Source: Edaphobacter aggregans (lineage in GTDB: Bacteria; Acidobacteriota; Terriglobia; Terriglobales; Acidobacteriaceae). From it: 32,000 bases of DNA. Positions 1 through 20,516 of the stretch are shown in pieces. How positions within the stretch are numbered: position 1 is the stretch's first letter; the number at the start of each line of letters is the position of its first letter. Under the pieces are notes generated by a model, which worked only from the letters and a program-made list of their open reading frames with translations, was not told the origin of the DNA and did not search any database. The translations under genes and the position numbers were made by a program. The stretch is from assembly GCF_003945235.1 (NCBI RefSeq), contig NZ_RSDW01000001.1, forward strand, positions 3,480,001 through 3,512,000. Reading direction: 5' to 3'.

Positions 1-78
1 GTCGCAGCTCGCTTGAGAGGCTGCTTGTTTTTGAAAGGTATTCTCTTCGCTATCACGTTTGTGCGTGTGTGAGATTTT

Positions 79-1479
79 ATGACAATGCAGCAAGGTAAAT
101 GGGCATCGCTTTGGAACGCGCTTAGCGCCGCGGGAGATTTGTCTGGCCGCTTTGTATTTGGCGCGGAAGCAAGTATCGCTTTGAGCGACCTACTTGCCGG
201 GTCTGCTCTTTATGGTAGAGGTGATGAACTGGGTGGTCGATCCGTTCTTGTTACGACAACGAACCAGTTCACCACGGCCTCGGCACTCATAGAACTGGAC
301 GGCATCGCGCGCCGTATGGTTCTTTGTCCACCAGATTTACCGGTTGAACATCTACCGTACGTCATCGAATCGGCAAATGTCGATGCAATCGTATCCGACC
401 GTACGATACTTGGATTGGATATTCACCGCCCCCTATGCTTCTGTCCGTGCACTCGGAAGATTGTGCCCGAAAATTGTAGTCGGAGCGCACAATACCAAAC
501 GGAATGGATTCTTCTCACCTCTGGTACGACTGGGCTACCGAAACTTGTTGTCCACACATTATCTAGCTTGTCCGGCGCCATTAAGGCCGGCAGTGGTTCA
601 GCAGAACCGACCGTTTGGAGCACGTTCTACGACATTCGCCGTTACGGCGGTCTCCAGATATTCCTTCGCGCTTTCCTTACTGGGACGTCCTTAGTTCTTT
701 CGAGTGCGGAGGAGTCAACGGCAGATTTTCTTGCTCGAGCCGGCTCGCACGGAGTCACCCACATTTCCGGAACACCATGCCAGTGGCGCCGGGCGTTGAT
801 GAGTCCGTCAGCTAATCTTATCCAGCCCAAATATATTCGTTTGTCAGGAGAGATCGCGGATCAGGCAATCCTCAACCATCTGCGATCCTTTTATCCGCAA
901 GCTCGAATCGCGCACGCTTTCGCCTCAACAGAGGCCGGCGTGGCGTTTGAGGTGAACGATGGTATCGCGGGCTTTCCTGCAAGTGCGATAGAGGACACCC
1001 CCGATGTCGAAATGAAAGTTGAGGATCGTTCGTTGTGGATACGTTCAAATCGCACTGCAAGCCGCTATCTTGGCGACCAACCTCCTATCTTGAAAAACGC
1101 GGATGGATTTGTAGACACCCGCGACCTGATTGAATTGCGAGATGATAGATACTACTTCGTCGGTCGGCAGGATGGAGCGATTAACGTCGGAGGTTTGAAA
1201 GTGTACCCCGAAGAAGTGGAGGCGGTTATCAATCGTCATCCAGAGGTTCAGATGTCGTTAGTACGGACGAAAAGGAATCCGATTACGGGTGCGCTCGTCG
1301 TCGCCGACGTAGTTCTGACGGAACAACAATCTGCCAGTCGTGATATGCGTGCACTCCAGGGTGACATCCTACTGCTCTGCCGCGAAACTCTTTCTTCCCA
1401 TAAAGTTCCGGTCGCAATTAACTTTATTCCCGCGTTGGCGGTCACTGAATCTGGGAAACTCGTGCGCCGCAATGCGTAA
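79..1479 (+). CDS. AMP-dependent synthetase/ligase (adenylate-forming acyl-activating enzyme), short 466-aa form
   Basis: ATG-initiated ORF. Motifs: LLTSGTTGLPK (P-loop/A3), AFASTEAG (A5-like), FVDTRDL plus GRQDGAINVGGLKVYPEEVE (A7/A8), C-terminal SGKLVRR (A10 Lys). Stop TAA 1477-1479 overlaps the next ATG at 1472. Confidence 0.85.
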   Translation: MTMQQGKWASLWNALSAAGDLSGRFVFGAEASIALSDLLAGSALYGRGDELGGRSVLVTTTNQFTTASALIELDGIARRMVLCPPDLPVEHLPYVIESANVDAIVSDRTILGLDIHRPLCFCPCTRKIVPENCSRSAQYQTEWILLTSGTTGLPKLVVHTLSSLSGAIKAGSGSAEPTVWSTFYDIRRYGGLQIFLRAFLTGTSLVLSSAEESTADFLARAGSHGVTHISGTPCQWRRALMSPSANLIQPKYIRLSGEIADQAILNHLRSFYPQARIAHAFASTEAGVAFEVNDGIAGFPASAIEDTPDVEMKVEDRSLWIRSNRTASRYLGDQPPILKNADGFVDTRDLIELRDDRYYFVGRQDGAINVGGLKVYPEEVEAVINRHPEVQMSLVRTKRNPITGALVVADVVLTEQQSASRDMRALQGDILLLCRETLSSHKVPVAINFIPALAVTESGKLVRRNA

Positions 1480-2206
1480 TGTAATTGTGACAGGCGGAAG
1501 CCGAGGGTTGGGTCTGGGTATTGCCCGTAAATTGACGGAAACTGGATATCGTGTCATTGCAGTTGCGCGCAAACAAAATGATGAACTCGCGGTGGCAATG
1601 CAGGAAGCCGAAAAAGCGAATCCCGGATCGTTTCACTTCGCGCCCTTTGATCTCGCCGAGATCGAAGGCATTCCTGATTTGATCAAGACCTTGCGGAAAG
1701 ACTTCGGTCCGATCTATGGACTGGTTAATAACGCCGGTTTGAGTTTTGATGGAACTCTTGCCCTTATGCCTGTGTCCCAGATTGAACAACTTCTGCGTGT
1801 AAATACGCTGTCGCCAATTGTGTTCACCAAATATATGGTGCGCTCGATGATGGCTGATGGAGGCGGTCGCATCGTCAATATGGCGTCTATCACCGCCTTC
1901 ACAGGCTATAGTGGCCTCTCGGTGTACGGGGCAACAAAGGCATCGATCATTGGTTTTTCCCGATCTATAGCGCGAGAGGTCGGACGCATGGGAGTAAATG
2001 TGAATTCGGTCGCTCCTGGCTTCATCGAGACCGACATGACTCAGGGCATCAAAGACGAGCAGCGTCAGCAGATTGAGCGCCGCAGCGCCCTGAAACGCCT
2101 TGCGGACATCGATGATGTGGCAAATGCCGTCGAATTTCTTCTCAGCGATCGAGCGAAGAACATTACAGGAACGGTACTTACCGTCGATGCGGGTAATACG
2201 GCATGA
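1472..2206 (+). CDS. Short-chain dehydrogenase/reductase, FabG-like (3-oxoacyl reductase family)
   Basis: MRNVIVTGGSRGLGLGIARKL (TGxxxGxG Rossmann), NNAGL, YGATKAS (YxxxK), C-terminal ITGTVLTVDAGNT. The ORF-track start 1340 lies inside the upstream gene; ATG 1472 gives an 8-nt overlap (ATGCGTAA). Confidence 0.85.
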   Translation: MRNVIVTGGSRGLGLGIARKLTETGYRVIAVARKQNDELAVAMQEAEKANPGSFHFAPFDLAEIEGIPDLIKTLRKDFGPIYGLVNNAGLSFDGTLALMPVSQIEQLLRVNTLSPIVFTKYMVRSMMADGGGRIVNMASITAFTGYSGLSVYGATKASIIGFSRSIAREVGRMGVNVNSVAPGFIETDMTQGIKDEQRQQIERRSALKRLADIDDVANAVEFLLSDRAKNITGTVLTVDAGNTA

Positions 2207-4011
2207 CAGAGGTTCAAACAAATGCTCCAGTCAATGCGAATGGCTCTGCTGCCAAGGCCTGGTTGCGTGCGCTGGAACTGACCGCGCCGATCGCTCGTAA
2301 CCCTAATCGCGTTATGTCCACGGTGATGGAGGACCTGGCTGCGCGCTCGAGCGATGCGCCTGCTTTGCTATCCGACCGAGAGTGTCTGACATATCGAGAG
2401 CTTGCCGAACGTTCAAACCGATATGCCCGCTGGGCACTTAAGCAGGGTCTTGCTAAAGGCGAGGTCGTCTGCCTGTTGATGACGAATCGACCGGAATATT
2501 TTGTCATTTGGCTTGGTATAACAAGTGTCGGCGGTGTGGTTGCGCTGCTCAACACCAATCTTGTTGGTTCTTCGCTGGCACATTGCATCAATATAGTTTC
2601 GCCTAAACATCTGATTGTAGATGGAGAGTTCGTCGATGCGCTGACTACTGCGTTGCCGAGTCTCAGCGTGTCACCCGAGATCTGGGCACACGGCGTCGAA
2701 TGCGCCTCATACCAGCGTATCGATCTCGACATCGAGTACATATCGGGTGACACGTTGAGTCGGGAAGAGCGAAGGCCGTTAACCATCGAAGATCGGGCAC
2801 TTTACATCTTTACCTCTGGTACAACTGGACTACCTAAGGCTGCCAACATCAGCCATGCACGCGTCTTGCAATGGAGCCATTGGTTTGCCGGAATGATGGG
2901 AGCTCAGCAAACAGATCGGATGTACAACTGCTTGCCGATGTATCACAGCATTGGTGGTGTGCTGGTACCTGGTGCCGCTCTCGTTGGTGGCGGTTCCGTG
3001 GTCATTCGCGAAAAGTTTTCGGCTAGCCAGTTCTGGGCCGATGTCATTCGTTGGGACTGCACGATGTTTCAATACATCGGCGAGCTTTGCCGTTACTTAT
3101 TACACGCTGCACCGTCCTCAAATGAGAGAAGCCATCGAATCAGAATGGCTTGCGGCAATGGGTTGGCATCCGAAGTGTGGGAAGACTTTAAGGAACGGTT
3201 TCAAATCCCCCAAATCCTCGAATTCTACGCATCCACAGAAGGTGGCGTTTCTTTATTCAATGTTCAAGGAAAGCCCGGTGCGATCGGACATATTCCGACG
3301 TACCTAGCGCATCGATTTTCGCCACCGCTGGTAGTGTTCGACGTCGAGAAAGGCAAGCCGGTCCGAAATGACGAGGGATTCTGTATTCGCTGTGCTCCCA
3401 ACGAAATCGGCGAGGCGATCGGTAAGGTTGTGAACGATCTATCGAACATAGGCGGTCGGTTTGAGGGTTACACTGACAAGCGAGCATCGAACGAAAAAAT
3501 CCTTCGTGATGTTTTTGAGCTGGGAGATGCCTGGGTTCGCACCGGCGACCTTATGCGGAAAGACGAGAAGGGCTTTTTTTATTTTGTCGATCGTATAGGC
3601 GATACGTTTCGATGGAAGGGCGAGAACGTTGCGACCTCTGAAGTCTCAGAAGCGATTTGTACATTTCCAGGAGTCAAACACGCTAATGTCTACGGGGTGG
3701 CCATTCCAGGGACCGAAGGTCGCGGTGGCATGGCAGCGCTCGTTACCGAACATGAGATGGATCTACCGGCGTTTCGGAGGCATCTGATGAGCCGTCTTCC
3801 AGCCTACGCGCGTCCTTTGTTTCTGCGAATTCGAGATGATATTGAAGTAACTGGAACTTTCAAATATTCGAAAACTGATCTAGTACGTCAAGGATATGAT
3901 CCTGTTGCTATCACAGATGTCGTCTATTTTGACAGTCCCGAGTCGGAGGCGTTTGTTCAGCTCGACAAAGTATTGTACGACCGTATCCAAGACGGCCAGA
4001 TCCGTTTATAA
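2203..4011 (+). CDS. Long-chain/very-long-chain acyl-CoA synthetase, FATP/FadD6-like
   Basis: 602 aa. Motifs: YIFTSGTTGLPKAANISH, EFYASTEG, VRTGDLMRKDEKGFFYFVDRIGDTFRWKGENVATSEV, TGTFKYSK. This architecture is typical of fatty-acid-transport-protein type ligases. ATGA overlap with the SDR stop (2203-2206). Confidence 0.85.
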   Translation: MTEVQTNAPVNANGSAAKAWLRALELTAPIARNPNRVMSTVMEDLAARSSDAPALLSDRECLTYRELAERSNRYARWALKQGLAKGEVVCLLMTNRPEYFVIWLGITSVGGVVALLNTNLVGSSLAHCINIVSPKHLIVDGEFVDALTTALPSLSVSPEIWAHGVECASYQRIDLDIEYISGDTLSREERRPLTIEDRALYIFTSGTTGLPKAANISHARVLQWSHWFAGMMGAQQTDRMYNCLPMYHSIGGVLVPGAALVGGGSVVIREKFSASQFWADVIRWDCTMFQYIGELCRYLLHAAPSSNERSHRIRMACGNGLASEVWEDFKERFQIPQILEFYASTEGGVSLFNVQGKPGAIGHIPTYLAHRFSPPLVVFDVEKGKPVRNDEGFCIRCAPNEIGEAIGKVVNDLSNIGGRFEGYTDKRASNEKILRDVFELGDAWVRTGDLMRKDEKGFFYFVDRIGDTFRWKGENVATSEVSEAICTFPGVKHANVYGVAIPGTEGRGGMAALVTEHEMDLPAFRRHLMSRLPAYARPLFLRIRDDIEVTGTFKYSKTDLVRQGYDPVAITDVVYFDSPESEAFVQLDKVLYDRIQDGQIRL

Positions 4012-4135
4012 ACTTCTGGACTAGTCGATTTGGATCGACGTTTACACGACTAGTAAACAAGAGTGGACTATCTATTTCATAGCAAACAGTTCCTTTGTTC
4101 TAAGCTTCGTTAGCGCCACGGAAGTAGGATGCGAA

Positions 4136-5665
4136 ATGGTCATCGATGAATTCAGGAGCGATTTCGCAAAGATTGAGTCTGAGATAGCGATGGGCCCCAT
4201 CGTGCCCAGTGTGACACCCGAAGAGATTCGGGATCATCTCACGTCTCGCTATAACTTCAAGAAGGCGATGACTCTTGAGGAAGTCATCGTCGATGTAGAA
4301 CAGATGTTAAGAACGTGGCAGGTCCAGGTCACCCATCCACGTTATTTCGGCCTCTTCAACCCGAGCGTGACGCTCGCATCTGTCGTTGCGGAGACCTTGG
4401 TAGCCATGTATAACCCTCAGTTGGCGAATTGGCGAACCTCGCCTGCGGGGAATGAGATCGAAAGGCATACTCTTAGTTGGCTCGCCGCAAAATTTGGCCT
4501 CCCAGCAAATGCCAGTTCAACATTCACGAGTGGTGGGTCGGAAGCCAATCTCTCAGCGGTCGTTGTCGCCTTAACGCGTGCTTTCCCCGACTATGGCGAA
4601 AATGGACTTCGAGATCTTACCGCGTTGCCCACGATCTACGTGACAGCGGAGGCGCATCATTCGTTCAACAAGATCGCGCATATAACCGGACTTGGAAGAA
4701 GGGCTTTGCGCACAGTAGCGACCGACTCATATTTGAAGCTTGATGTTGAAGATCTCAGAAGACGTGTAATAGAGGATCGAAAAATCGGATTAGCCCCCTT
4801 CATGGTGGTCGGCGCCGGCGGGACCACTGCAGCTGGCGTAATCGATCCCTTGACGGATATCGGACGCTTTTGCCAAGAGGAGAATCTTTGGTTTCACGTC
4901 GATGCCGCATGGGGGGGGGCCGCAATACTAGCTGAAAGCCTCAAGCACTATTTCGCCGGAATTGATACTGCAGATTCAATCACGTGTGATGCGCATAAAT
5001 GGTTCTCCGTGCCAATGGGAGCCGGGATGTTCTTCTGCCGTCATCCTGACGCCGTCGCGGAAGCCTTTCGAGCTGAAGTCTCCTATATGCCGAAGAAGAC
5101 GGATGGGTTTGTGGAGGATCCCTACACTACCTCAGTGCAATGGTCCCGCCGTTTTATCGGTTTGAAACTCTTCCTCGCGTTGGCGCAGCAGGGGGAATTG
5201 GGGTATGTCGAGATGATCGAGCACCAGACTCAGATGGGACAGGTGCTGCGCGAATCTCTTGAGTCCTCTGGGTGGCGAATCGTTAATACGACGCCGCTGC
5301 CACTCGTTTGTTTTACGCGGGAAGGACTCGATACCAGTAGGTTCCTCTCAGTTCTGCGAGAACGCCAGATTGTATGGATGTCAGAGGCGCAGCTCGATGG
5401 TACTCCTGTCTTACGCGCGTGTATCACCAGTTTCAAGACTACTGAAACGGATATTCACTGGGTGGTGGATGAGATGAATCGTCTCATCTGTCAAGGTGCC
5501 GGTCAAACCAGTACGAGGCCGGAGTCGGTCTCACCAGCACAGCCCAGACAGGGATGGAAACATGAAACGGGACACGATTGCTATTCACGGCGGCTACAAT
5601 GTAGATCCGACGACCAAGGCTGTAGCTGTGCCAATTTATCAGACGGTTTCTTACGCGTTCGATAG
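4136..5665 (+). CDS. Pyridoxal-phosphate-dependent decarboxylase, group II (fold type I)
   Basis: 509-aa ORF. SGGSEANL, HVDAAWGG and SITCDAHKWFSVPMGAGMFFCR (PLP-lysine motif S-x-x-x-x-HK) fit PF00282-type amino-acid decarboxylases. The last ~55 aa (QGAGQTSTRPESV...FLRVR) are Arg/Ser/Cys-rich, and the final 104 nt of this tail overlap the metY start, so they may not be native C-terminus. Confidence 0.8.
   Translation: MVIDEFRSDFAKIESEIAMGPIVPSVTPEEIRDHLTSRYNFKKAMTLEEVIVDVEQMLRTWQVQVTHPRYFGLFNPSVTLASVVAETLVAMYNPQLANWRTSPAGNEIERHTLSWLAAKFGLPANASSTFTSGGSEANLSAVVVALTRAFPDYGENGLRDLTALPTIYVTAEAHHSFNKIAHITGLGRRALRTVATDSYLKLDVEDLRRRVIEDRKIGLAPFMVVGAGGTTAAGVIDPLTDIGRFCQEENLWFHVDAAWGGAAILAESLKHYFAGIDTADSITCDAHKWFSVPMGAGMFFCRHPDAVAEAFRAEVSYMPKKTDGFVEDPYTTSVQWSRRFIGLKLFLALAQQGELGYVEMIEHQTQMGQVLRESLESSGWRIVNTTPLPLVCFTREGLDTSRFLSVLRERQIVWMSEAQLDGTPVLRACITSFKTTETDIHWVVDEMNRLICQGAGQTSTRPESVSPAQPRQGWKHETGHDCYSRRLQCRSDDQGCSCANLSDGFLRVR
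4911..4919 (+). repeat. G9 homopolymer inside the decarboxylase CDS
   Basis: Sequence gcat-ggggggggg-ccgc encodes W-G-G-A of HVDAAWGGAAIL. It is the longest homopolymer I saw in the window. Confidence 0.9.
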
Positions 5666-6839
5666 CGCCGACCATGCCTCGGCATTGTTCAATCTCGAGG
5701 CTGAAGGATTTCGCTATACCCGTATCGGGAACCCGACTACTGCAGTGTTGGAGCGGCGGGTCGCGGCGCTAGAAGGAGGGCTGGAAGCCCTGTGCGTCAG
5801 TAGCGGACAAGCGGCAGTTAACTATGCGGTTCTCAATGTTTCTCAGTTGGGAAGCAATATTGTTTCGGTTCCGCAACTCTATGGAACTACGCACACCCTA
5901 TTTGCGCACATTCTGCCAAGCCAGGGAGTCATTGTCCGATTCGCGGAGTCGGATCATCCGGAGGCGCTCAAAAAACTAATCGATGACAACACCCGTGCGA
6001 TCTTCTGTGAAAGTGTTGGTAATCCGGCAGGAAATATCTGCGATATCGAGTCGCTTGCTCGAATGGCTCACGAACACGGAGTGCCGCTGATCGTCGATAA
6101 TACGGTTGCCTCACCTATCCTTCTGCAGCCGATTGAATACGGCGCTGACATAGTTTTGCACTCTCTCACAAAGTTCCTGGGTGGACACGGCAATTCGCTC
6201 GGCGGAGCCATCGTCGACAGCGGCAATTTTCCGTGGGGAGACCACGCCTCAAGATTTCCGATGTTCAGCCAACCCGATGCCTCCTATCATGGGCTCGTCT
6301 ACACGGATCACTTCGGGAGAGGCGCCTATTTAGGACGGTGCCGCAGCTTCTACCAGCGAACCACCGGGGCTGTCTTGTCGCCACTGAACGCTTTCCTACT
6401 GCTGCAGGGAATCGAGACGGTCGCGCTACGAGTCGAGCGACACGTTGAGAATGGCAAAAAAGTAGCAGAATTTTTGAGCAATGACCCCAGAGTTAAGTGG
6501 GTTAATTATGCTGGATTTGCCGAGAGCCCTTATTATGCGTTGGCACAAAAATATATGTCCGGCCGCGCCTGCTCACTGATGACCGTTGGAATCATGGGGG
6601 GCTATGAAGCCGCGATTAAATTTCATGATGCATTGAAACTGGTGACCCGCCTCGTCAATCTGGGTGATGCCAAATCGTTGGCCTGCCATCCGGCCTCGAC
6701 GACGCATCGGCAAATGTCGGACGAAGCGAAACGCAGTGCTGGAGTCATGCCGGAGATGATTCGACTCAGCATCGGGATCGAGCACATCGACGACATCATC
6801 GAAGACCTGAATCAGGCACTCAGCGCAACAACATGCTGA
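5562..6839 (+). CDS. metY: O-acetylhomoserine sulfhydrylase / aminocarboxypropyltransferase (Cys/Met-metabolism PLP enzyme)
   Basis: MKRDTIAIHGGY...PIYQTVSYAF...YTRIGNPTT...HSLTKFLGGHGN (PLP Lys)...LGDAKSLACHPASTTHRQ...IRLSIGIEHIDDIIEDL is a classic MetY/MetZ-family signature. ATG 5562 was chosen because homology starts there; the ORF-track GTG 5496 adds a non-homologous leader. Confidence 0.9.
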   Translation: MKRDTIAIHGGYNVDPTTKAVAVPIYQTVSYAFDSADHASALFNLEAEGFRYTRIGNPTTAVLERRVAALEGGLEALCVSSGQAAVNYAVLNVSQLGSNIVSVPQLYGTTHTLFAHILPSQGVIVRFAESDHPEALKKLIDDNTRAIFCESVGNPAGNICDIESLARMAHEHGVPLIVDNTVASPILLQPIEYGADIVLHSLTKFLGGHGNSLGGAIVDSGNFPWGDHASRFPMFSQPDASYHGLVYTDHFGRGAYLGRCRSFYQRTTGAVLSPLNAFLLLQGIETVALRVERHVENGKKVAEFLSNDPRVKWVNYAGFAESPYYALAQKYMSGRACSLMTVGIMGGYEAAIKFHDALKLVTRLVNLGDAKSLACHPASTTHRQMSDEAKRSAGVMPEMIRLSIGIEHIDDIIEDLNQALSATTC

Positions 6840-6932
6840 TCGGTTCCCAATAATTCACGCCAATCTGACAATTTGATCGACCTCTACCCAAGGATCAATG
6901 GCAGATCAAGCAGAGCTTCGCCTGTGGCGCAC

Positions 6933-6961
6933 TTTACATGCGCGGAACATCACACTATAGC
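6933..6961 (+). promoter_or_regulatory. Candidate sigma70-type promoter for the rml-like operon (TTTACA-17 nt-TATAGC)
   Basis: TTTACA at 6933-6938, a 17-nt spacer, TATAGC at 6956-6961, 46 nt upstream of ATG 7008. A GGAGAG Shine-Dalgarno sits at 6995-7000. Pattern match only. Confidence 0.25.
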
Positions 6962-7007
6962 TATCTTCCGGTCTCGATAGTCCCTTTCGCTAACGGAGAG
7001 TACATCT

Positions 7008-7610
7008 ATGCCCTTGGAGTTGGATAGTTCACATCTTGGTGGGGAAGTTGTGGTTATTAAGCCTACAGTTTTGGGCGACGACCGTGGCTTTTTCATGGAA
7101 ACCTACCGCTACGACAACTTCCGAGACATGGGGTTGCCGACCGAATGGGTACAGGACAATCACTCACGTTCATCGAAGGGAGTTCTACGCGGTCTCCATT
7201 TTCAGTGGGATCCTCCAATGAGCAAATTGATGCGGGTGACTCGTGGTGCGGCCTTCCTTGTCGCAGTGGACATCCGAAAAGGATCGCCCACATTAGGCGA
7301 GTGGTTCGGCCTTGAAGTTACAGCAGACAACAAGAAGCAGATATATGCTCCGTACGGATTTGCGCGCGGCTTCTGTGCTCTTACTGATGAGTGTGAAGTG
7401 CAATACAAGTGCACGGGAATTTATAACTCCGGTGCAGAATCGGGAATTTACTACAAGGATCCCGAGATTGGCATTGAGTGGCCAATCACAGATGTCATTG
7501 TATCCACTAAGGATGCTAAGGCACAGTCCCTGAATCAATGGCTTGCCTCGTCACTGTCTGACAACATCGTCTATCAATCTAAATCCGAGTTTGCTGGAGG
7601 GGTGAAGTAA
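7008..7610 (+). CDS. rfbC: dTDP-4-dehydrorhamnose 3,5-epimerase family (RmlC-like cupin)
   Basis: GDDRGFFMETYR, SRSSKGVLRGLHFQ, RGFCALTDECEVQYKCTGIY and the ~200-aa length are typical of RmlC. A good SD precedes the start. Confidence 0.85.
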   Translation: MPLELDSSHLGGEVVVIKPTVLGDDRGFFMETYRYDNFRDMGLPTEWVQDNHSRSSKGVLRGLHFQWDPPMSKLMRVTRGAAFLVAVDIRKGSPTLGEWFGLEVTADNKKQIYAPYGFARGFCALTDECEVQYKCTGIYNSGAESGIYYKDPEIGIEWPITDVIVSTKDAKAQSLNQWLASSLSDNIVYQSKSEFAGGVK

Positions 7611-8618
7611 ATGCGTATTCTTATCGCTGGTGGTGCAGGTTACGTCGGTTCTGCATTGATTCCGCATCTCCTGGATCGGGGTTATACGATCGACGTCGTC
7701 GATTTGTTCTGGTTCGGCAACGACTTGCCGCACTATGTTGGCGTCATTGAAAAAAATATCTTCGACCTGCAAGCGTCCGACTTATCCGGCTATGACCAGG
7801 TTATATTTCTAGCTGGTCTCTCGAACGACCCGATGGCCGATTTTTCACCCGCCAAAAACTTCATCTTCAATGCATCGGCTCCAGCATATCTCGCATACAT
7901 CGCCAAGAAGGCCAAGGTAAGGCGATACATTTATGCGAGCTCTTGCTCGGTGTACGGATACACGGAAAACGAGCTCTTCGATGAGAACTGCCCCGTCAAT
8001 TCGTCCAACCCGTACGGTATCTCCAAGCTACAAGGGGAACGTGCCGTCATGCAGATGGTCGATTCCGAATTCTCTGTCATCGCTCTGAGGAAGGGCACCG
8101 TCTCCGGATACAGCCCACGTATGCGTTATGATTTGCTCGTCAACACAATGTTTAAGTGTGCCATGAAAGAGGGTATGATTCACGTCAACGACCCGGCGAT
8201 ATGGCGTCCTTTTCTCAGCATTGAAGACGCTGTCATGGCCTACACACGCGCCATCGAAGCTAATGAGTCCATCAACGGCATATATAACATCGCCTCCGGC
8301 AATCACACTGTAGGCGAAGTTGCCGATCTCGTTAAATTTGCGGTCGAAGAAGAGTTCGGCCAAAAGATCGCGCTAGACATTAAGCACATCAGAGACGCCC
8401 GGAACTACAAGGTTTCAATCGAGCGGGCCAAAACGATCCTAAGTTTTCATCCACATCATAGTGTCAAGTCCATCGTACGCAGTCTGATCAGCAATATGGA
8501 TAAGTGCGGCGATTGGGACAACCCCAAGTACTACAACATCCATGTTTTCAAGGCTCTTGAGAACCTGACACCGACTGGTACCTATGCGTTTTCCCAGGTC
8601 GCTGGGGGCACTAGGTGA
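7611..8618 (+). CDS. NAD-dependent epimerase/dehydratase (extended SDR), sugar-nucleotide modifying
   Basis: MRILIAGGAGYVGSAL (GxxGxxG), YASSCSVYG, PYGISKLQGE (YxxxK). The ATG directly abuts the rfbC stop (TAA|ATG at 7608-7613). Substrate and reaction cannot be assigned from sequence. Confidence 0.8.
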   Translation: MRILIAGGAGYVGSALIPHLLDRGYTIDVVDLFWFGNDLPHYVGVIEKNIFDLQASDLSGYDQVIFLAGLSNDPMADFSPAKNFIFNASAPAYLAYIAKKAKVRRYIYASSCSVYGYTENELFDENCPVNSSNPYGISKLQGERAVMQMVDSEFSVIALRKGTVSGYSPRMRYDLLVNTMFKCAMKEGMIHVNDPAIWRPFLSIEDAVMAYTRAIEANESINGIYNIASGNHTVGEVADLVKFAVEEEFGQKIALDIKHIRDARNYKVSIERAKTILSFHPHHSVKSIVRSLISNMDKCGDWDNPKYYNIHVFKALENLTPTGTYAFSQVAGGTR

Positions 8619-9475
8619 AAGTTGCCGTGCTGGGATCTAATGGACAACTTGGGAGCGATGTGTGTGCAGCCTTTCTACGGAATGGAGATCAAGTTATTGG
8701 TCTCACTCACTCGGATTTTGAGGTGACTTCGGCTTCCTGCGTCGATGCAGTGCTTTCCGCTTCCATGCCGGAGTTCATCGTCAATACGGCAGCGATGCAC
8801 CATGTAGAGAAATGCGAGGCTGATCCCATTGGCGCATTTCACAGCAATGCAATTGGTGCGAAGTTCGTGGCCGAATGGGCGAAACAGGCCGGCGCAACGG
8901 TAGCATACGTGAGCACTGATTATGTCTTCGATGGCAAGAAAGATGCTCCGTACTTGGAAATCGACTCTGCTGTCCCGCTCTCTGCTTACGGAATTACCAA
9001 GCTGGCGGGAGAACACTTTACTGCCGCAATCGCTGCGAAGTACTTCGTGCTTCGCGTTTCTGCCATTTATGGCCATCACCCATGCCGAGCAAAGGGTGGT
9101 CTCAACTTCGTCGAGTTGATGCTAAAGTTATCTCGCGAGCGAGACGAATTGCGCGTTGTTGATGATGAATTTGTCACACCGACTTCCACTGTACAGATCG
9201 CAGAGCAACTAATTGTGCTCAGTCGCTCGCGGCACTACGGCCTCTATCACGGAACCGCCGAAGGAAGCTGCTCGTGGTATGAGTTTGCTCGTGAGATCTT
9301 CCGTGCCACAGGCACCAGAATTCGCTTAGAGAAGGCGCGTCCCGGAGAGTTTCCGACAAAGGTTCCGCGCCCTAAATTCTCCGTTCTTGAGAATCAGGCA
9401 CTGAAAGCTGCTCATTTGAACGTGTTTACCGACTGGCGGGATGGATTGGATAGTTATCTCCGTACCCGCGCTTAG
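8615..9475 (+). CDS. rfbD: dTDP-4-dehydrorhamnose reductase family (RmlD-like)
   Basis: MKVAVLGSNGQLGSDV, NTAAMHHVEKCEADP, VSTDYVFDG, YGITKLAGE. GTG start overlaps the upstream stop (GTGA, 8615-8618). Confidence 0.85.
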   Translation: MKVAVLGSNGQLGSDVCAAFLRNGDQVIGLTHSDFEVTSASCVDAVLSASMPEFIVNTAAMHHVEKCEADPIGAFHSNAIGAKFVAEWAKQAGATVAYVSTDYVFDGKKDAPYLEIDSAVPLSAYGITKLAGEHFTAAIAAKYFVLRVSAIYGHHPCRAKGGLNFVELMLKLSRERDELRVVDDEFVTPTSTVQIAEQLIVLSRSRHYGLYHGTAEGSCSWYEFAREIFRATGTRIRLEKARPGEFPTKVPRPKFSVLENQALKAAHLNVFTDWRDGLDSYLRTRA

Positions 9476-9519
9476 TTCCAGTTAGCACGCGTAACAGGGT
9501 GGAAGGGGTTGTTGGCAGC

Positions 9520-10809
9520 ATGAGCGACAAATATTGCGATGTTGCCATTATTGGAGCCGGTATCATTGGGCTCGCGGTTGGTTTGCAACTCATTCGCAAG
9601 GATCCGAACCTGAAGATCATTGTTCTCGATAAGGAAAATGAAGTAGCTTCTCATCAGACGGGACATAATAGTGGTGTGCTGCATTCTGGCTTGTATTACA
9701 AGCCAGGTTCGCTCAAGGCGCGGCTCTGTGTTGAGGGCAGGGCGGCCATGATTCAGTTTTGCGAGGAGCACGCGATACCGTACGAGATCTGCGGCAAGAT
9801 CATCGTTGCAACCGAAGAACACGAGATACCTAGTCTCAATGAACTGTTGCGCCGCGGACGGACGAATGGCGTATCTGGCCTACGGGAGCTGGACGCGCAG
9901 CAGATTCATGAGATCGAGCCTCACGCATCGGGCCTACGCGGTATCCATATACCGACTACTGGTATCACTGACTTCAGAATGGTCTCGGCCAAGTATGCGG
10001 AGCTTATCAAGCAAGGTGGAGGCGAGGTTCTTACTAACTCTGGTGTCTCGCGCATTTTGTCTGAGGTTGGTGGGATCGTTCTTGAGACTTCTTTCGATGT
10101 CATACACGCGCGTTTCGCCGTCAACTGCGCAGGTTTGCAGAGCGACCGCATCGCTAGCATGGCTGGCGCCAGTCTTGGTCTTCGCATTATACCGTTCCGG
10201 GGCGAATACTTTGAGCTCGTGCCTGCGAAGCACCATCTCATCAAAGGCCTAGTGTATCCGGTTGCCGATCCCCGCTTTCCATTCTTGGGAGTTCATTTCA
10301 CCAAGCGAATTCACGGAGGTGTCGAAGCGGGTCCGAATGCGGTGCTCTCGTTCAAACGCGAGGGATATGCCCGAACGTCATTCAACCTCTCAGACACGCT
10401 CTCGACGGCTTTGTTCCTGGGTTTTTGGAAGATGGCCTCTCAGAACTGGGAATATGGGATGGAAGAAATCTACCGTTCTTGGAATCGGCAGGCGTTTACG
10501 CGCGCGCTGCAGAAGCTGTTGCCGAGTTTGACGGAGCAAGACATTCAGCCTGGAGGCTCGGGTGTACGTGCTCAGGCGTTGGATCATGACGGAAATCTAT
10601 TGGATGATTTTCATTTTATCTATCAGGATCGAATTCTCCACGTTTGCAACGTGCCTTCTCCGGCAGCCACAGCCTCTTTGTCGATCGGTAGGGAGATTGC
10701 TTCAATGCTCCATGGGCATGCTGCACTCAAAAAAGTGGAGCTTGTTGTTAAACAGGAGATAACATCGGCAAAAAACCTGGCTTCGTTGGCATGTCCCGAG
10801 AGCACTTAG
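9520..10809 (+). CDS. lhgO: L-2-hydroxyglutarate oxidase/dehydrogenase (FAD-dependent, LhgO/YgaF family)
   Basis: DVAIIGAGIIGLAVG (FAD GxGxxG), HQTGHNSGVLHSGLYYKPGSLKA, PFRGEYFEL, DPRFPFLGVHFTKRIHGGVEAGPNAVLSFKREGY and GVRAQALDHDGNLLDDF...CNVPSPAATASLSIG match my recollection of E. coli LhgO along the whole length. ATG 9520 is preferred over GTG 9499. Confidence 0.85.
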   Translation: MSDKYCDVAIIGAGIIGLAVGLQLIRKDPNLKIIVLDKENEVASHQTGHNSGVLHSGLYYKPGSLKARLCVEGRAAMIQFCEEHAIPYEICGKIIVATEEHEIPSLNELLRRGRTNGVSGLRELDAQQIHEIEPHASGLRGIHIPTTGITDFRMVSAKYAELIKQGGGEVLTNSGVSRILSEVGGIVLETSFDVIHARFAVNCAGLQSDRIASMAGASLGLRIIPFRGEYFELVPAKHHLIKGLVYPVADPRFPFLGVHFTKRIHGGVEAGPNAVLSFKREGYARTSFNLSDTLSTALFLGFWKMASQNWEYGMEEIYRSWNRQAFTRALQKLLPSLTEQDIQPGGSGVRAQALDHDGNLLDDFHFIYQDRILHVCNVPSPAATASLSIGREIASMLHGHAALKKVELVVKQEITSAKNLASLACPEST

Positions 10810-11358
10810 ATATGAAGGCGTGAGTGGCTTACCGGTGAAACTCCTCTTTCCCAAAAGTTCCAGCCGTAAATCAACTTGAGTCCTCTGCAACTAAATCGGC
10901 ATCATTTTTTACCTGTGTCGCCGGTGCTACCCGCCGATAACATATGCACTTTATTGTTAGGTCGAATGCAAAGACCTGCAACCTAGAATCACGCACGAAA
11001 GACTGCGCAAGTAGCCAAGCGATAATTTTCGCGAAATCAGAAATGAAATACCTTGATCATGTTTAGGAATGCCGCCATTACTATGGCCATCATCGTGCAA
11101 GCTAAGCGTATGTAGATCGACATTCGAAGTCAGCGCGGCCGAGTAAGGAATGTAGCCCACAGGGCAAAGCTATGTCTACTTGGACTGAATGTTGGATCAG
11201 GAAGAGCACAGCCAGTAACTATAGGTGGGTAAAGCGCCTATTGCTGAACTTTATAGGCCCAGCAATAAAGTACGTCTTTGCCCAGACTCCAATCACCGTG
11301 GCGCCCGATTGCAAATTTCTGGTGTCGAATCCCTAACCATTGAAAGAAAGGTGAAATT

Positions 11359-12033
11359 ATGAACACGACGCTACTCATGCCGCAGCAGCCGCAGAACCAT
11401 GTGCTCGACGCCTCCATCCAACAGCAGATCAATGCCATGATTGATGGCCTTATGGCTTCGTTGCCTGAAATGAGTCAACTGACCAAAGCTGAGCGGCGAG
11501 GGATAATTGCGCGATATACCGCAGTTCTGGAAGGAAATTTCATCTATTGGATGACGGCCACCCTTCTTGCCGTGCAGTCAGAAGATGCGCGCCCAATCCT
11601 CCTTGATAATCTCAACGAAGAAGTGCGCGATTCCCATCCGGTCATGCTGCGCAATTTCGCGGTTGCCGCCCAGGCTTTCCCGACAGACTCCGATGCGTTA
11701 GCCGTGAATGAAGAGTTAAATAGCGTCCGTCGCTTTCTGGGTCGGCTTTCCGCCGTGCAGTCGCTTCTGACAATGGCTTTCTTCGAAGGGTTCATACAAC
11801 GGTTTATGGCTTATTTGGCGGATCTTGCCAAAGCACAAGGCTCAGTTGATATGGAATACACAGATGTGCACGGTGTCTGCGATATTGCGCATACTGACGG
11901 TCTCTTCCGTGCACTTTCTATTGAGATGACTCTCAACCCGCTTGAACCGGAGAAAGATCTCTTCGAAGGCGTCTATCTCCTTCGCACCCTCATCGAGACC
12001 GTCGTCTTCAACCGGGACACACCCTCTGCCTGA
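11359..12033 (+). CDS. Heme-oxygenase-like diiron oxidase/oxygenase (HDO) candidate; iron-containing redox enzyme family
   Basis: 224 aa. Putative ligands: E87/E88...H93 (LNEEVRDSHPVML), E143 (MAFFEGF), H171-x3-D175-x2-H178 (DVHGVCDIAHTD). AAAGGTGA Shine-Dalgarno lies before ATG 11359. Assignment is by motif pattern only. Confidence 0.65.
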   Translation: MNTTLLMPQQPQNHVLDASIQQQINAMIDGLMASLPEMSQLTKAERRGIIARYTAVLEGNFIYWMTATLLAVQSEDARPILLDNLNEEVRDSHPVMLRNFAVAAQAFPTDSDALAVNEELNSVRRFLGRLSAVQSLLTMAFFEGFIQRFMAYLADLAKAQGSVDMEYTDVHGVCDIAHTDGLFRALSIEMTLNPLEPEKDLFEGVYLLRTLIETVVFNRDTPSA

Positions 12034-12057
12034 TCATTTCTACCGGGGGCATCTCAA

Positions 12058-12873
12058 GTGCAGACCCAACTTCATCAAGAGATCAGCTTGCCAGAGCAGG
12101 CCGGATACTTCACGGTCCCCGGTGCGGAGCTTTACGCAGTCCTGCATCAGGTTCCGGATCCGGTGGCGCGCGTTCTCCTCGTTGGACCATTCGCCTCCGG
12201 GCGGCATTTTTCATATCACCCATGGGTTCGCTGGGCCCGATATCTGGCCGCGAGGCGGATCGAAGTCCTTCGCTATGATTATCGCGGTATTGGCGAGAGC
12301 ACGGGTGTTTTCGAAGAAATGAGTTTTGAGAACTGGAGCGAAGACGTCCAACTTCTTGCCGATTGGGTCATACGCCGGTCGCCCAGCGTCCCGCTTGTGC
12401 TCCATGGGCTCGAACTAGGAGCCATACTCGCCGCCAGATGTTTCCATAAGGGCACAGGCGATGCATTGCTACTGTGGTCTCCGCCTGCTAATGCGAACCA
12501 GGCACTCCGTTCGAGCCTCTTGTACTGGGCGGGGTTGGGACAATTAAACGAGTCTCCCGAGAACCGGAAGACAGTCTCGGAATATATCCGGCAATTAGAA
12601 GAGGGTTCTTTTATCGAAGTACAGGGATATCAATGGTCGAGTCGTCTGTGGCGCGACTCTTTTCACTTTGACTTGCCCGCGACCATGAGAGATGAAAGCT
12701 CTTGCGAATCATACAAAAAGCCAATCAAGGTAATTAAGCTTGGAAAAGAGGCTGCTCCTCTGGTGAAGTCGCATTTTGGGAATGGCGAAGCTAGGGACTT
12801 CAGCTGCCTATACTCCAGTAATTACGACTGGATTGCCGGAGCCTTAGCCCTCTCGCACAGGGGGATGCAATGA
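12058..12873 (+). CDS. Alpha/beta-hydrolase-fold protein with atypical nucleophile elbow G-L-E-L-G (resembles exosortase-A-associated hydrolase 2, from memory)
   Basis: GTG start, with no in-frame ATG until residue 88. VLLVGPFASGRH...RYDYRGIGESTG...PLVLHGLELGAILAA shows alpha/beta-hydrolase topology, but Glu119 (nt 12412-12414) occupies the position where the GxSxG serine is expected. Confidence 0.65.
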   Translation: MQTQLHQEISLPEQAGYFTVPGAELYAVLHQVPDPVARVLLVGPFASGRHFSYHPWVRWARYLAARRIEVLRYDYRGIGESTGVFEEMSFENWSEDVQLLADWVIRRSPSVPLVLHGLELGAILAARCFHKGTGDALLLWSPPANANQALRSSLLYWAGLGQLNESPENRKTVSEYIRQLEEGSFIEVQGYQWSSRLWRDSFHFDLPATMRDESSCESYKKPIKVIKLGKEAAPLVKSHFGNGEARDFSCLYSSNYDWIAGALALSHRGMQ

Positions 12874-13766
12874 AAGAAACGATTGAAACACGTGAGTTGA
12901 TCGTGCTGGATGGTCTCGACGTCACTATCCGAGGCACCTATCATAAGACCTACGATGACAACCTAGCCGCACAGTCAAACCCGGTCGCGCAACCCCGCAT
13001 CGGGGTTTTGTTCCTGAATTCTATTTCGCCGACGAGAGCTGCGCATGGCGATGCGGCGGTTTATTGGGCCGACTCGTTTGCGGAGTGTGGCTATCCGTCC
13101 TTTCGACTTGATCTGCCAGGATTCGGAGACTCCGAAGGAGATCTTCCAGAAGATTTGGCTGGCTTTATCAACCAAGGGGGGTATGCATCCATTGTCTCCG
13201 CTAAGGTCAGAGAGCTTGTGGCTCGATTCAACCTATCGGGAGTAGTCATAGTGGGTCAATGCGCAAGCGGTGTCTCGGCACTTTATACGGCCGCCGCCTC
13301 GCCAAAGTGCAAAGGCCTTGTTTTGATGGACCCATACTTCTACTTGCCACAAGCAAAACGGCCAGTGATTCGACGGGAATGGGGTACTTGGTTTTTACAT
13401 AGTCGTCGCCAGTTTTCGAGTATTGTTTATGATCGTCTGAAAAGGATTGGCTGTTTTCTCCGCGGGGGAGACCTGCCGAAGAATGCCAATTATCTACTTC
13501 TTAGTTCCTGGAAGAAACTGACGCCCAAAGGATTGCCGGTTCTTATCCTAAAGGGGCCCGACTGTAGAACTCTCAACATGAAACCGAGGGCTGGTGAGTT
13601 CGACTACTTAGAGTATCTTCTGAAAGTTGCAGGTCGCGGAAGTAAGGTCGTCGTAAAAGTGACGAATAGCGCCAATAAGGCTTTCGTGAACCATCAGGGC
13701 CGAGTTGCGGTTCGGCAGCATACTGAACAGTGGCTAAATGCCTATTTCCCATTGGTAAAGCCTTGA
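12870..13766 (+). CDS. Alpha/beta-hydrolase-fold protein with Cys at the nucleophile position (resembles exosortase-A-associated hydrolase 1, from memory)
   Basis: IGVLFLNS...RLDLPGFGDSEG...VVIVGQCASGVSALYTAA...GLVLMDPYF...LPVLILKG...VTNSANKAF...QHTEQWL. Cys131 (nt 13260-13262) sits at the elbow. Lys270 (nt 13677-13679) sits where the family His (G-A-D-H-x-F) is expected. ATGA overlap with the upstream stop. Confidence 0.65.
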   Translation: MKETIETRELIVLDGLDVTIRGTYHKTYDDNLAAQSNPVAQPRIGVLFLNSISPTRAAHGDAAVYWADSFAECGYPSFRLDLPGFGDSEGDLPEDLAGFINQGGYASIVSAKVRELVARFNLSGVVIVGQCASGVSALYTAAASPKCKGLVLMDPYFYLPQAKRPVIRREWGTWFLHSRRQFSSIVYDRLKRIGCFLRGGDLPKNANYLLLSSWKKLTPKGLPVLILKGPDCRTLNMKPRAGEFDYLEYLLKVAGRGSKVVVKVTNSANKAFVNHQGRVAVRQHTEQWLNAYFPLVKP

Positions 13767-13841
13767 GACCACCTTGCATACCGGCACGACAAATATTAGA
13801 AGGCACAACGAACTTCGTTCTATACCTTTTGTGTTGGAGTT

Positions 13842-14259
13842 GTAGCCGATTGCAATACGGATCGACATAGTTTTGTGCTTAGCCATCGTCGATAGTGGCA
13901 ATTATTCCGTAAAAGACGACGGCAGAATTTTGAGCAATGATTCCAAGTTAAGTGGGTCGATTATGTTGGGTTCGTCGAAAGTCCTTATCATGCATCGGCA
14001 CAAATATATGGTGGCTACTCGCTAATGGCTGTAGGGATCACGGGGCTACGAAGCCAGCAGTTAAATTTCATTTTGCGTTGAAGCTGGTGGCACGGTTTGT
14101 CAATCTGGTGACACCAAATCGTTGGTCTGCCTCTGCCTCGACGACGCATCGACGAATGTCGGATGAAGCGAAACGCAGCGCCGAAGTCATGGCTCGGGAT
14201 CGAACACTGCGACGATATTATCGCCTGATCTGAATCTGGCGCTCAACGCAACCGTGTAA
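13842..14259 (+). pseudogene. Decayed duplicate of the 3' half of metY (internal deletions, frameshifts)
   Basis: Hand alignment to metY 6128-6839 in the same orientation. gccgattgcaatacggatcgacatagttttg matches gccgattgaatacggcgctgacatagttttg. agccatcgtcgatagtggcaatt (13881-13903) matches agccatcgtcgacagcggcaatt (6206-6228). gcagaattttgagcaatga matches gcagaatttttgagcaatga (6464-). cctcgacgacgcatcgacgaatgtcggatgaagcgaaacgcag matches cctcgacgacgcatcggcaaatgtcggacgaagcgaaacgcag. Equivalents of ~6161-6205 and ~6247-6463 are missing. The 93-aa ORF 13952-14233 retains ...STTHRRMSDEAKRSAEVM (metY: STTHRQMSDEAKRSAGVM). Confidence 0.8.
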
Positions 14260-14310: not shown

Positions 14311-15375
14311 ATGCCTATTTGTTCGAGTTCTAGTCGTTTCGTTCATGACCGGCGGTCAGGCAGCAACACGCCTGCGGAATGCCGGGAACGGTCGAGTAAG
14401 TGCGTCACAATCGGATTGATCAATAACATGGCGGACGGGGCTCTCGATGCAACAGAGCGCCAGTTTATTTCGCTTCTCGATTCGGTTTCCGATGACATAC
14501 AAATTAGACTATCGTTTCATGCGTTACCTAACGTTCCCAGGAGTGAGCTAGGTACAAACCATATCAAAAATTTCTATTCGAGTGTCGAGAGTCTTTGGGA
14601 TAAGAGCCTTGACGGACTCATAGTGACCGGCAGAGAGCCTCTCGCATCGAATCTGAAGGATGAACCTTACTGGGATAGTTTTACAGAAGTCCTTGAGTGG
14701 GCTAAGGAAAACACTTACTCGACCATCTGGTCTTGCCTGGCCGCGCACGCTGCGCTATTGCACATAGATGGGATCGATCGTGTCAGGAGCAACGATAAAT
14801 TCTGCGGTATCTTCGAGTGTGCCCGGCTGTCAGATCACCCCCTGACGACAGATGCGCCGTCGCGCTTCAACCTTCCACACTCCCGGTGGAACGGCATACC
14901 TGAAGACGCTTTGACAAGTTGTGGATATAGCATACTCACGCGAGCGGCGGATGCCGGCGTTGATACGTTCGTAGGGCGGCACAAAAGCCTCTTCGTCTTT
15001 TTTCAGGGTCACCCAGAGTACGAATCCAATACGTTGCTGCTTGAATACCGCAGGGATGTTGGGCGTTACCTCCGTGGAGAGACAAATATCTATCCACTGA
15101 TGCCGCGAAGCTACTTCGATCACAGGACTGTGATTGCATTGAAGGCGCTTCAAAACGAAGCTACGTCCCGCCCACGCGTAGACTTACTCGCGGACGTCTC
15201 TGCTGCATTAGGAAAGTCAAAAATCGAAAACACCTGGTACTCAACAGCTGTATGCATTTACCGAAACTGGCTGGAGTATATATGTGCGCAGAAGCAGCTA
15301 CGATTGAAAGACAGATCTCTATCCTGTCAACGCCCGCGAAATCTGGTATGGCCGCACCAGCGACTAAGCTTCTGA
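14311..15375 (+). CDS. metA: Homoserine O-acyltransferase (MetA/HTS family; succinyl versus acetyl specificity not decidable)
   Basis: [56 protein letters not shown] (active-site Cys context), [27 protein letters not shown]. The C-terminal ~25 aa ([25 protein letters not shown]) overlap the next gene. Confidence 0.85.
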
Positions 15376-16790: not shown

Positions 16791-16912
16791 CAAAAGATCT
16801 CGCAATCAAGAAGTGGCCGCGAATGACTTGTTGACATGATCCTTTGAGATCAAGATTTTTACTCGCAATTAGGCCACCATCGTCGAAAACCGTGTCGTTG
16901 TATCTCCCCTAA

Positions 16913-16941
16913 GCTGCCTCTTCGGAGGCGGCTTTTTCTTT
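16913..16941 (+). terminator. Rho-independent terminator after the aldehyde dehydrogenase gene
   Basis: gctgcctc-ttcg-gaggcggc forms an 8-bp stem (one G-U pair) with a tetraloop, followed by tttttcttt. Confidence 0.7.
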
Positions 16942-20434: not shown

Positions 20435-20516
20435 AGATGGCAATGATTATAGCGAGCGATTTTCCTTTCAGCTCTCTGCGCATATTCAGATATCGGAGAA
20501 AACAATCTACTTCGCT

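Follow-up and report, generated by a model that had tools for sequence, protein, structure and literature searches.

The question raised by this locus is whether a run of unannotated genes in Edaphobacter aggregans encodes a single pathway, and how it is related to the gene set found with exosortase A. The genes lie within a stretch of 32,000 nucleotides (nt) (assembly GCF_003945235.1, contig NZ_RSDW01000001.1, positions 3,480,001 to 3,512,000 of the forward strand), which was analysed as a whole and is called the window hereafter. The original prediction, made from the sequence alone, had described positions 79–13766 as an orphan set resembling but not matching the exosortase-A-associated cassette of TIGR03098–TIGR03101. 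We know of no product assigned to that cassette, and our literature searches returned no account of its chemistry or of the present gene set. We found that the window holds a rearranged copy of a previously undescribed ten-gene cassette that is conserved across the Acidobacteriaceae beside exopolysaccharide (EPS) genes. In its commonest order the cassette encodes a predicted heme-oxygenase-like dimetal oxidase (HDO), two alpha/beta-fold proteins (hydA and hydB), a putative acyl carrier protein (ACP), an adenylate-forming enzyme (L1), a FabG-like short-chain dehydrogenase/reductase (SDR), a FATP-type acyl-CoA synthetase (L2), a decarboxylase dependent on pyridoxal phosphate (PLP), MetY and MetA.

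Alignment of homologs of the window HDO gave at least 79 loci in species-representative genomes, all of them Acidobacteriaceae, with HDO identities of 63–82%, and all window proteins were run against these loci by tblastn. The gene census covers the 66 loci in which the sequence continues for 10 kb or more 3' of the HDO gene. HDO and ACP occur together in 66/66 of these loci, L1 in 59 (directly 3' of ACP in the canonical order), SDR in 58, L2 in 55, the decarboxylase in 56, MetY in 53, MetA in 56 (directly 3' of MetY in the canonical order), and hydA with hydB in 49. The order HDO–hydA–hydB–ACP–L1–SDR–L2–decarboxylase–MetY–MetA is the commonest and exact in 22 loci, the others being mostly truncations or minor variants of it. 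The genes are kept together in three orders: the canonical one, that of the window, and a Tunturiibacter type that reads LbH–hydA–hydB–ACP–HDO–L1–SDR–L2–decarboxylase–MetY–MetA–rmlC–SDR–rmlD, where LbH is a hexapeptide acyltransferase.

The co-conserved, unannotated gene set that had been predicted is genuine and survives rearrangement across related loci, but its boundaries had to be redrawn. The lhgO gene, included in the prediction, is linked to the cassette in 0/66 loci and is an interloper. Likewise, rmlC is linked in 6/66 loci and a 335-aa (amino acid) SDR in 7/66, all of them Tunturiibacter-type loci with the trio placed after metA; the rml trio is thus not part of the core and probably belongs to the neighbouring polysaccharide locus. 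Conversely, metA lies beyond the predicted end yet is co-conserved. The hexapeptide acyltransferase turns up in 17/66 loci and in 7 of the 16 without hydA and hydB; it is a possible substitute for the hydrolase pair, which hints that off-loading is acyl transfer to a sugar. The cassette and its neighbours are arranged in the window as follows.

1..98, + strand: ACP relic, 3' end, in frame 3, overlapping the L1 start as in canonical loci
79..1479, + strand: L1, a divergent stand-alone adenylate-forming enzyme of 466 aa (PF00501, PF13193)
1472..2206, + strand: FabG-like classical SDR of 244 aa (PF13561, E 3e-54)
2203..4011, + strand: L2, a FATP/FadD6-type long-chain acyl-CoA synthetase of 602 aa (NF006134 PRK08279)
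4136..5665, + strand: group II PLP-dependent amino-acid decarboxylase (PF00282, E 4e-67)
5562..6839, + strand: MetY, O-acetylhomoserine sulfhydrylase (TIGR01326)
7008..9475, + strand: rmlC, 335-aa extended SDR and rmlD, deoxysugar genes (TIGR01221, TIGR01214)
9499..10809, + strand: lhgO, L-2-hydroxyglutarate oxidase (NF008726)
11359..12033, + strand: predicted HDO of 224 aa (ligand set, profile, AlphaFold2 fold)
12058..12873, + strand: hydA, alpha/beta-fold protein (TIGR03101 as top family, below cut-off)
12870..13766, + strand: hydB, alpha/beta hydrolase with a putative Cys nucleophile (TIGR03100 as top family, below cut-off)
13841..14252, + strand: metY pseudogene relic (blastn against intact metY)
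14311..15375, + strand: MetA, homoserine O-acyltransferase (NF003776)

The predicted open reading frames (ORFs) were all recovered at their coordinates on the + strand by the ORF map, and scans of the window proteins against Pfam and NCBIfam upheld the family assignments. In the NCBIfam scan, curated cut-offs are passed by L2 (NF006134 PRK08279, 764 bits against 625), MetY (TIGR01326, 598 against 495), MetA (NF003776, 385 against 358), RmlC (TIGR01221, 212 against 156), RmlD (TIGR01214, 265 against 224) and LhgO (NF008726, 545 against 299). The 244-aa SDR stays under the cut-off of TIGR01830 (207 bits against 298), and the 335-aa extended SDR between rmlC and rmlD was assigned no NCBIfam family. 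Database names for the cassette proteins are generic, such as "alpha/beta fold hydrolase" or "iron-containing redox enzyme", and the database protein identical to the window HDO (224/224 residues) is named "heme oxygenase-like protein".

The junctions between the genes divide the cassette into three tight, translationally coupled modules, HDO–hydA–hydB, ACP–L1–SDR–L2 and decarboxylase–MetY–MetA. L1 and SDR overlap by 8 nt in 97% of 65 loci, SDR and L2 by 4 nt in 98% of 61 loci, and hydA and hydB by 4–15 nt in 98% of 56 loci. The ACP stop codon overlaps the L1 start, between the decarboxylase and MetY the median is −4 nt (55 loci), and the spacings are +22 nt from HDO to hydA, +52 nt from MetY to MetA and +86 nt from L2 to the decarboxylase. 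At the L2/decarboxylase boundary some loci carry accessory insertions encoding a cytochrome P450 (PF00067, E 1e-76; 4 loci) or an acyltransferase-3 protein (PF01757). The five junction strings reported for the window are exact (ATGCGTAA at 1472–1479, ATGA at 2203–2206, TAA-ATG at 7608–7613, GTGA at 8615–8618 and ATGA at 12870–12873), and the translational couplings read from them go beyond chance because they are conserved across related loci.

In the window, the block from L1 to MetY lies 5' of rmlC–SDR–rmlD–lhgO, and HDO–hydA–hydB lie 3' of them, followed by a decayed metY fragment directly before metA. Positions 13922–14252 match metY nt 904–1268 with 74% identity (blastn, E 6e-61), with frameshifts and internal deletions, and two smaller pieces of the relic lie at 13841–13875 and 13881–13910. 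The relic is closest to the metY of its own lineage and, judged by this alignment, marks the ancestral MetY–MetA junction. The block ACP–L1–SDR–L2–decarboxylase–MetY has been relocated as one unit in the window lineage, leaving the metY relic behind. The cassette has been reshuffled at least twice and its modules still lie within a few kb, which argues for selection on linkage. A 93-aa ORF at 13952–14233, considered as a homolog of the 81-aa ORF of locus L003, has no similarity to it and is part of the metY relic.

The window lineage also has signs of erosion: the ACP relic, a read-through of the decarboxylase, the loss of a hydB histidine described below, and a drop of hydB identity from 100% to 71% at the next database relative. 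The window decarboxylase ORF runs 104 nt into metY (5562–5665), so that a C-terminal read-through of about 36 aa covers the metY start. In orthologs, the decarboxylase reading frame stops some 36 codons sooner, in an ATGA-type overlap (the L003 ortholog has 473 aa), and the window gene seems to have lost its ancestral stop codon. The MetY start at 5562 is the most likely one because the TIGR01326 profile begins there, at residue 23 of the long ORF.

The carrier protein was found in what looked like a spacer. The interval of about 256 nt between hydB and L1 has a conserved length and a third-position periodicity of conservation, a pattern that rules out a regulatory region and reveals the ACP gene. 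The interval encodes an 81-aa protein, the ORF being found in 41 loci, with a conserved phosphopantetheine-site motif, LLDSGLDSL. Its PF00550 scores of 16.9–21.7 bits straddle the cut-off of 20.8, and by motif and near-threshold score it is a putative carrier protein. The original prediction had stated that no ACP is visible, which is wrong for the system: the gene is present in every locus of the census and a relic of it occupies nt 1–98 of the window. Frames 1 and 3 are both open at nt 1, as had been noted, and frame 3 is the 3' end of this relic, which aligns to the ACP terminus (RFYDNAAR followed by the stop, against the consensus FYENA). In the sister contig L085, ACP residues 39–52 match at 71% just 5' of L1, and an intact ACP gene lies about 860 nt further upstream. 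The suggestion that the upstream sequence be inspected proved well placed, as the carrier protein and an EPS locus were found there in related loci and sister contigs.

The 224-aa protein of the window is a predicted HDO with a complete metal site and a CADD-like fold. The superfamily is defined by a motif of three histidines and three carboxylates (PMC13108848), and in an alignment of 53 sequences, some with as little as 25% identity, the putative ligands E88, H93, E143, H171, D175 and H178 are each either invariant or conserved to at least 90%. Against PF14518, with its cut-off of 28.9 bits, the window protein reaches 27.3, and most of its homologs have a precomputed PF14518 match. A profile search against the Protein Data Bank (PDB) gave CADD as the best match (E 4e-8). 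The AlphaFold2 model (pLDDT 90.6, pTM 0.86) is all-helical, and its best Foldseek match is CtCADD, with TM-scores of 0.65–0.71, followed by HrmI, UndA and BesC, each with a probability of 1.00. The likeness to CADD/CT610, a 4-aminobenzoate synthase, extends to the heme-oxygenase-like helical fold, the 3-His/3-carboxylate ligands and the H-x3-D-x2-H helix. The two differ in that their sequence identity is just 14–16% and in that CADD Lys152 aligns to a non-conserved position of the HDO family (consensus FIPYLA); on this position, 4-aminobenzoate synthesis by the HDO was ruled out. The aligned region starts at CADD residue 33, so that Tyr27 has no counterpart, and the N-terminus of the HDO family is poorly conserved.

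The review PMC13108848 puts the characterised members of the HDO superfamily at about a dozen, acting on free fatty acids or amino acids, and describes none that works with a carrier protein. The present HDO, by contrast, occurs with an ACP in every locus of the census. We counted more than 5,000 homologs of the HDO in the protein collection; the family is small, with 352 clusters at the 50% identity level, and a profile search for distant HDOs returned mainly Acidobacteriaceae sequences.

The hydrolase pair had been singled out for its non-Ser nucleophile positions, and these are real: hydA has H-G-L-E119-L-G and hydB has G-Q-C131-A-S-G at the elbow. Neither protein shows the canonical Ser-His-Asp and G-x-S-x-G pattern of hydrolases. 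In hydA, Glu119 is kept in 49/53 orthologs and no C-terminal His is conserved; these features suggest that hydA is probably a non-catalytic partner of hydB. In hydB, C131 is found in 52/52 and D245 in 51/52 orthologs, and at least 90% of them have His at position 270 (motif DHSFANR). The window has Lys at this position. Of the four loci whose HDO is most nearly identical to that of the window, L005 has Arg there, L009 and L017 have Asn, and L004 keeps the His. The hydB enzyme of the window sublineage may be inactive or re-purposed. The AlphaFold2 model of hydB has a generic alpha/beta-hydrolase fold, and PDB sequence searches with L1, hydA and hydB gave weak, generic matches only. A PHA-synthase-like role of hydB was considered: the ortholog elbow GHCAG fits G-x-C-x-G, the window has GQCAS, and no PhaC is among the top 50 fold matches, leaving an analogy only. 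Locus L043 (10001–20253) shows a local amplification of the hydrolase/oxidase module: ahead of ACP–L1–SDR, the hydA–hydB pair occurs three times in tandem between two HDO copies. L019 likewise carries two HDO copies.

L1 carries the motifs TSGTTGLPK at 147, GRQD at 362 and SGK at 460. It reaches no NCBIfam family, the best being menE at 103 bits, far under the cut-off, and its motifs and its place beside the ACP gene suggest that it is probably the loader of the carrier protein. The decarboxylase has its PLP-lysine motif, DAHKW, at residues 284–288. Its best NCBIfam matches are DABA decarboxylase and PanP, both far under cut-off, and its nearest solved relatives are decarboxylases of aromatic, acidic and diamino acids.

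The cassette lies beside genes for surface polysaccharide. Clustering of the ORFs in the 10-kb stretch that precedes the HDO gene in 69 loci gave at least one of 13 recurrent polysaccharide gene families in 61 of them and at least two in 43. These families include an UpxY antiterminator, an EPS priming phosphotransferase (TIGR03025, 360 against a cut-off of 296), Wzx flippases, glycosyltransferases, and Wza-like and Wzc-like proteins. The EPS locus is of the Wzx/Wzy type, and its gene content is highly variable where the cassette is constant. Polysaccharide-type acyltransferases, WbbJ/WcaF-like hexapeptide and acyltransferase-3 proteins, are embedded in the cassette or abut it. The window's own lineage also has EPS genes upstream: the sister contigs L085 and L086 carry glycosyltransferases, a methyltransferase, a Wzx flippase, a WbbJ/WcaF-like hexapeptide acyltransferase and an intact ACP gene, then the gap of about 860 nt and L1. 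The UpxY family is familiar from Bacteroides capsule operons; NusG-like antiterminators of this family (NF033644, 110.9 against a cut-off of 100) lie directly upstream of the HDO gene in L043 (8627–9244) and in 9 other loci.

Taken together, the cassette might be a carrier-protein-dependent module for acyl tailoring and transfer that is linked to surface polysaccharide, our best reading, though evenly poised between right and wrong, with any specific chemistry rated much lower. L1 would adenylate a carboxylic or amino acid and load it onto the 81-aa carrier protein. The FabG-like SDR could reduce a keto group on the tethered or CoA-bound chain, and the FATP-type L2 would provide long-chain acyl-CoA. 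The dimetal HDO, with O2, might carry out hydroxylation, desaturation or oxidative cleavage of the tethered group. The Cys of hydB could take the acyl group as a thioester and off-load it, paired with the pseudo-hydrolase hydA; alternatively, the hexapeptide acyltransferase may off-load in some genomes. The metY-coupled decarboxylase would contribute the amine partner, made from a sulfur amino acid or one of the aspartate family. As product, the surface polysaccharide or its lipid anchor might carry an acyl or N-acyl-amine group as a decoration. The original prediction had put forward an N-acyl amine or a glycolipid-type molecule as hypothetical products. A fuller version, in which soil Acidobacteriaceae widely share a pathway that decorates their EPS with a new oxidised acyl or N-acyl-amine group, and which would also offer a tractable model for the chemistry of the exosortase-A cassette, appears unlikely in its full detail.

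Two kinds of known systems follow a comparable logic. In JamABC and TtuABC, a stand-alone ligase loads a fatty acid on a small dedicated ACP and a diiron oxidase modifies it to give terminal-alkyne starter units. The combination of ligase, O2-dependent diiron enzyme and ACP would be the same in the cassette, as a likeness of logic. The oxidase of those systems is a membrane desaturase and they feed polyketide synthase and nonribosomal peptide synthetase lines, whereas the oxidase here is a predicted HDO and such lines are absent. DltABCD, which adds D-alanine to teichoic acids, and AlmEFG, which adds glycine to lipid A, each combine an adenylating enzyme, a carrier of about 80 aa and a dedicated transferase, by which an acyl or aminoacyl group reaches a polymer of the cell surface. 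They would share with the cassette the stand-alone adenylating enzyme, the size of the carrier and a surface-polymer target. In the NCBIfam scan, however, L1 did not specifically resemble DltA or AlmE, the transferase folds differ, and nothing in those systems corresponds to the oxidase, the reductase, the second ligase or the decarboxylase.

Could the cassette instead be a bona fide exosortase-A (XrtA/PEP-CTERM) set of ligase, decarboxylase, hydrolase 1 and hydrolase 2? Both contain an adjacent pair of alpha/beta hydrolases, an AMP-forming ligase and a PLP decarboxylase in the setting of an EPS locus. TIGR03101 (hydrolase 2) is the top NCBIfam family for 34/34 hydA orthologs (best E 9e-24) and TIGR03100 (hydrolase 1) for 30/30 hydB orthologs (best E 9.6e-18), hydA and hydB being reciprocal best matches of hydrolase 2 and hydrolase 1. 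Among the upstream proteins, the best matches of the Wza-like and the chain-length/tyrosine-kinase proteins include XrtA-system families, under cut-off, and a 904-aa protein of the window with tetratricopeptide repeats (TPRs) reaches 264 bits against PrsT of the XrtA system, for which the cut-off is 312. Yet the cassette scores fall 3–8 fold under the curated cut-offs, and those of the hydrolases 3–4 fold: window hydA has 65.6 bits against 202.75, window hydB 40.4 against 168.45, and L1 and L2 have 66.7 and 118.5 bits against the 592.35 of TIGR03098. The decarboxylase belongs to fold-type I group II (PF00282, DAHKW) and not to the Orn/DAP type, as had been predicted, and in the NCBIfam scan it has no TIGR03099 match at E<=0.01. 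In a scan limited to the ORFs of the window and, in 63 loci, to the two ORFs nearest upstream, no exosortase or PEP-CTERM protein was found. The HDO, the FabG-like SDR, the second, FATP-type ligase and MetY/MetA are extra here. With these threshold results contradicting it, membership in the exosortase-A system is hardly credible, and the earlier wording, that the set resembles the cassette without matching it, was accurate. By profile similarity, the hydrolase pair is distantly homologous to the exosortase-A pair, with the ligases and the decarboxylase only analogous.

It is also conceivable that the cassette makes a free product, be it a membrane lipid or a small molecule (for instance a signal, an N-acyl amine or an oxidised fatty-acid derivative), and merely sits beside a recombination-prone EPS locus. 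A constant cassette next to variable EPS content, EPS genes that face away from it in several loci, an equivalog-level long-chain acyl-CoA synthetase, the occasional P450 and the action of characterised HDOs on free fatty acids or amino acids (PMC13108848) would fit such a product. Nevertheless, the EPS neighbourhood is kept in 61/69 loci and with all three gene orders, polysaccharide-type acyltransferases lie in or against the cassette, and the only curated relatives of the hydrolase pair are EPS-system components, as NCBIfam names the exosortase-A hydrolases; we regard a free product as doubtful, though deserving serious weight. Quite unlikely, in our judgement, is that there is no single pathway and that a mosaic of housekeeping operons (fatty-acid activation, methionine, rhamnose and 2-hydroxyglutarate oxidation) has inherited its order vertically. 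Such a mosaic could account for the curated equivalog cut-offs passed by MetY, MetA, RmlC, RmlD, LhgO and L2, for lhgO and the rml trio not being co-conserved with the rest, for the confinement of all loci to the Acidobacteriaceae, and for the 86-nt and 52-nt spacers and the insertions between L2 and the decarboxylase, which suggest separable units. It is at odds with the invariable pairing of HDO and ACP, with modules that stay together through at least three independent rearrangements, with the transfer of ACP–L1–SDR–L2–decarboxylase–MetY as one block that left the metY relic, and with the conserved 4–8 nt overlaps that tie uncharacterised genes to each other.

Several observations weigh against a carrier-protein-dependent, polysaccharide-linked module. 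All retrieved loci come from one bacterial family, and the synteny may be partly inherited rather than selected. MetY and MetA pass housekeeping cut-offs and may be merely co-located or co-transcribed; MetY is also the most conserved protein of the set, with 74–91% identity. The link to EPS could be positional, as the EPS genes are divergently transcribed from the cassette in some loci. The fold search with hydB returned just generic esterases, lipases and thioesterases. The window lineage has a hydB that lacks the catalytic His, its modules lie apart, and its ACP gene next to L1 has decayed to a relic. No cassette accompanies the distant HDO homologs of another bacterium and of an archaeon, and it was absent from all three distant contexts examined (a short contig, an unrelated bacterial one and an archaeal one).

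Few soil bacteria are as abundant as the Acidobacteriaceae, whose exopolysaccharides are important for survival and for the aggregation of soil. If the cassette is a tailoring module of the kind proposed, the HDO superfamily would gain a carrier-protein-dependent member, a new modification of a surface polymer would be defined, and Edaphobacter, Tunturiibacter and Acidipila would offer a culturable handle on the chemistry of the exosortase-A hydrolase pair.

The gap between lhgO and HDO (10810–11358) comprises 550 nt of non-coding sequence with no Rfam match, and the sole conserved element upstream of HDO is the Shine-Dalgarno sequence AGAAAGG. Riboswitch or leader control of metY/metA or of the cassette was rejected, as Rfam models at gathering thresholds matched nothing in the window and in seven canonical loci. 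A promoter and terminator scan did not rise over the shuffled expectation, except for a strong terminator at 16911–16934 after an aldehyde dehydrogenase gene; this hairpin is the only strong intrinsic-terminator-like one in the first 17 kb. The aldehyde dehydrogenase ORF (15252–16790) lies 3' of metA and is linked to the cassette in just 1/66 loci. The start of its long ORF at 15252 overlaps metA, and the real start is probably near 15348. Further along, the window encodes on the − strand (23080–26913) a 1277-aa fusion protein with FG-GAP repeats, ASPIC/UnbV and AhpC/TSA thioredoxin-like domains, and TPRs at its C-terminus. Its neighbours are a 596-aa FG-GAP/ASPIC protein (18653–20443, − strand) and the 904-aa TPR protein mentioned above.

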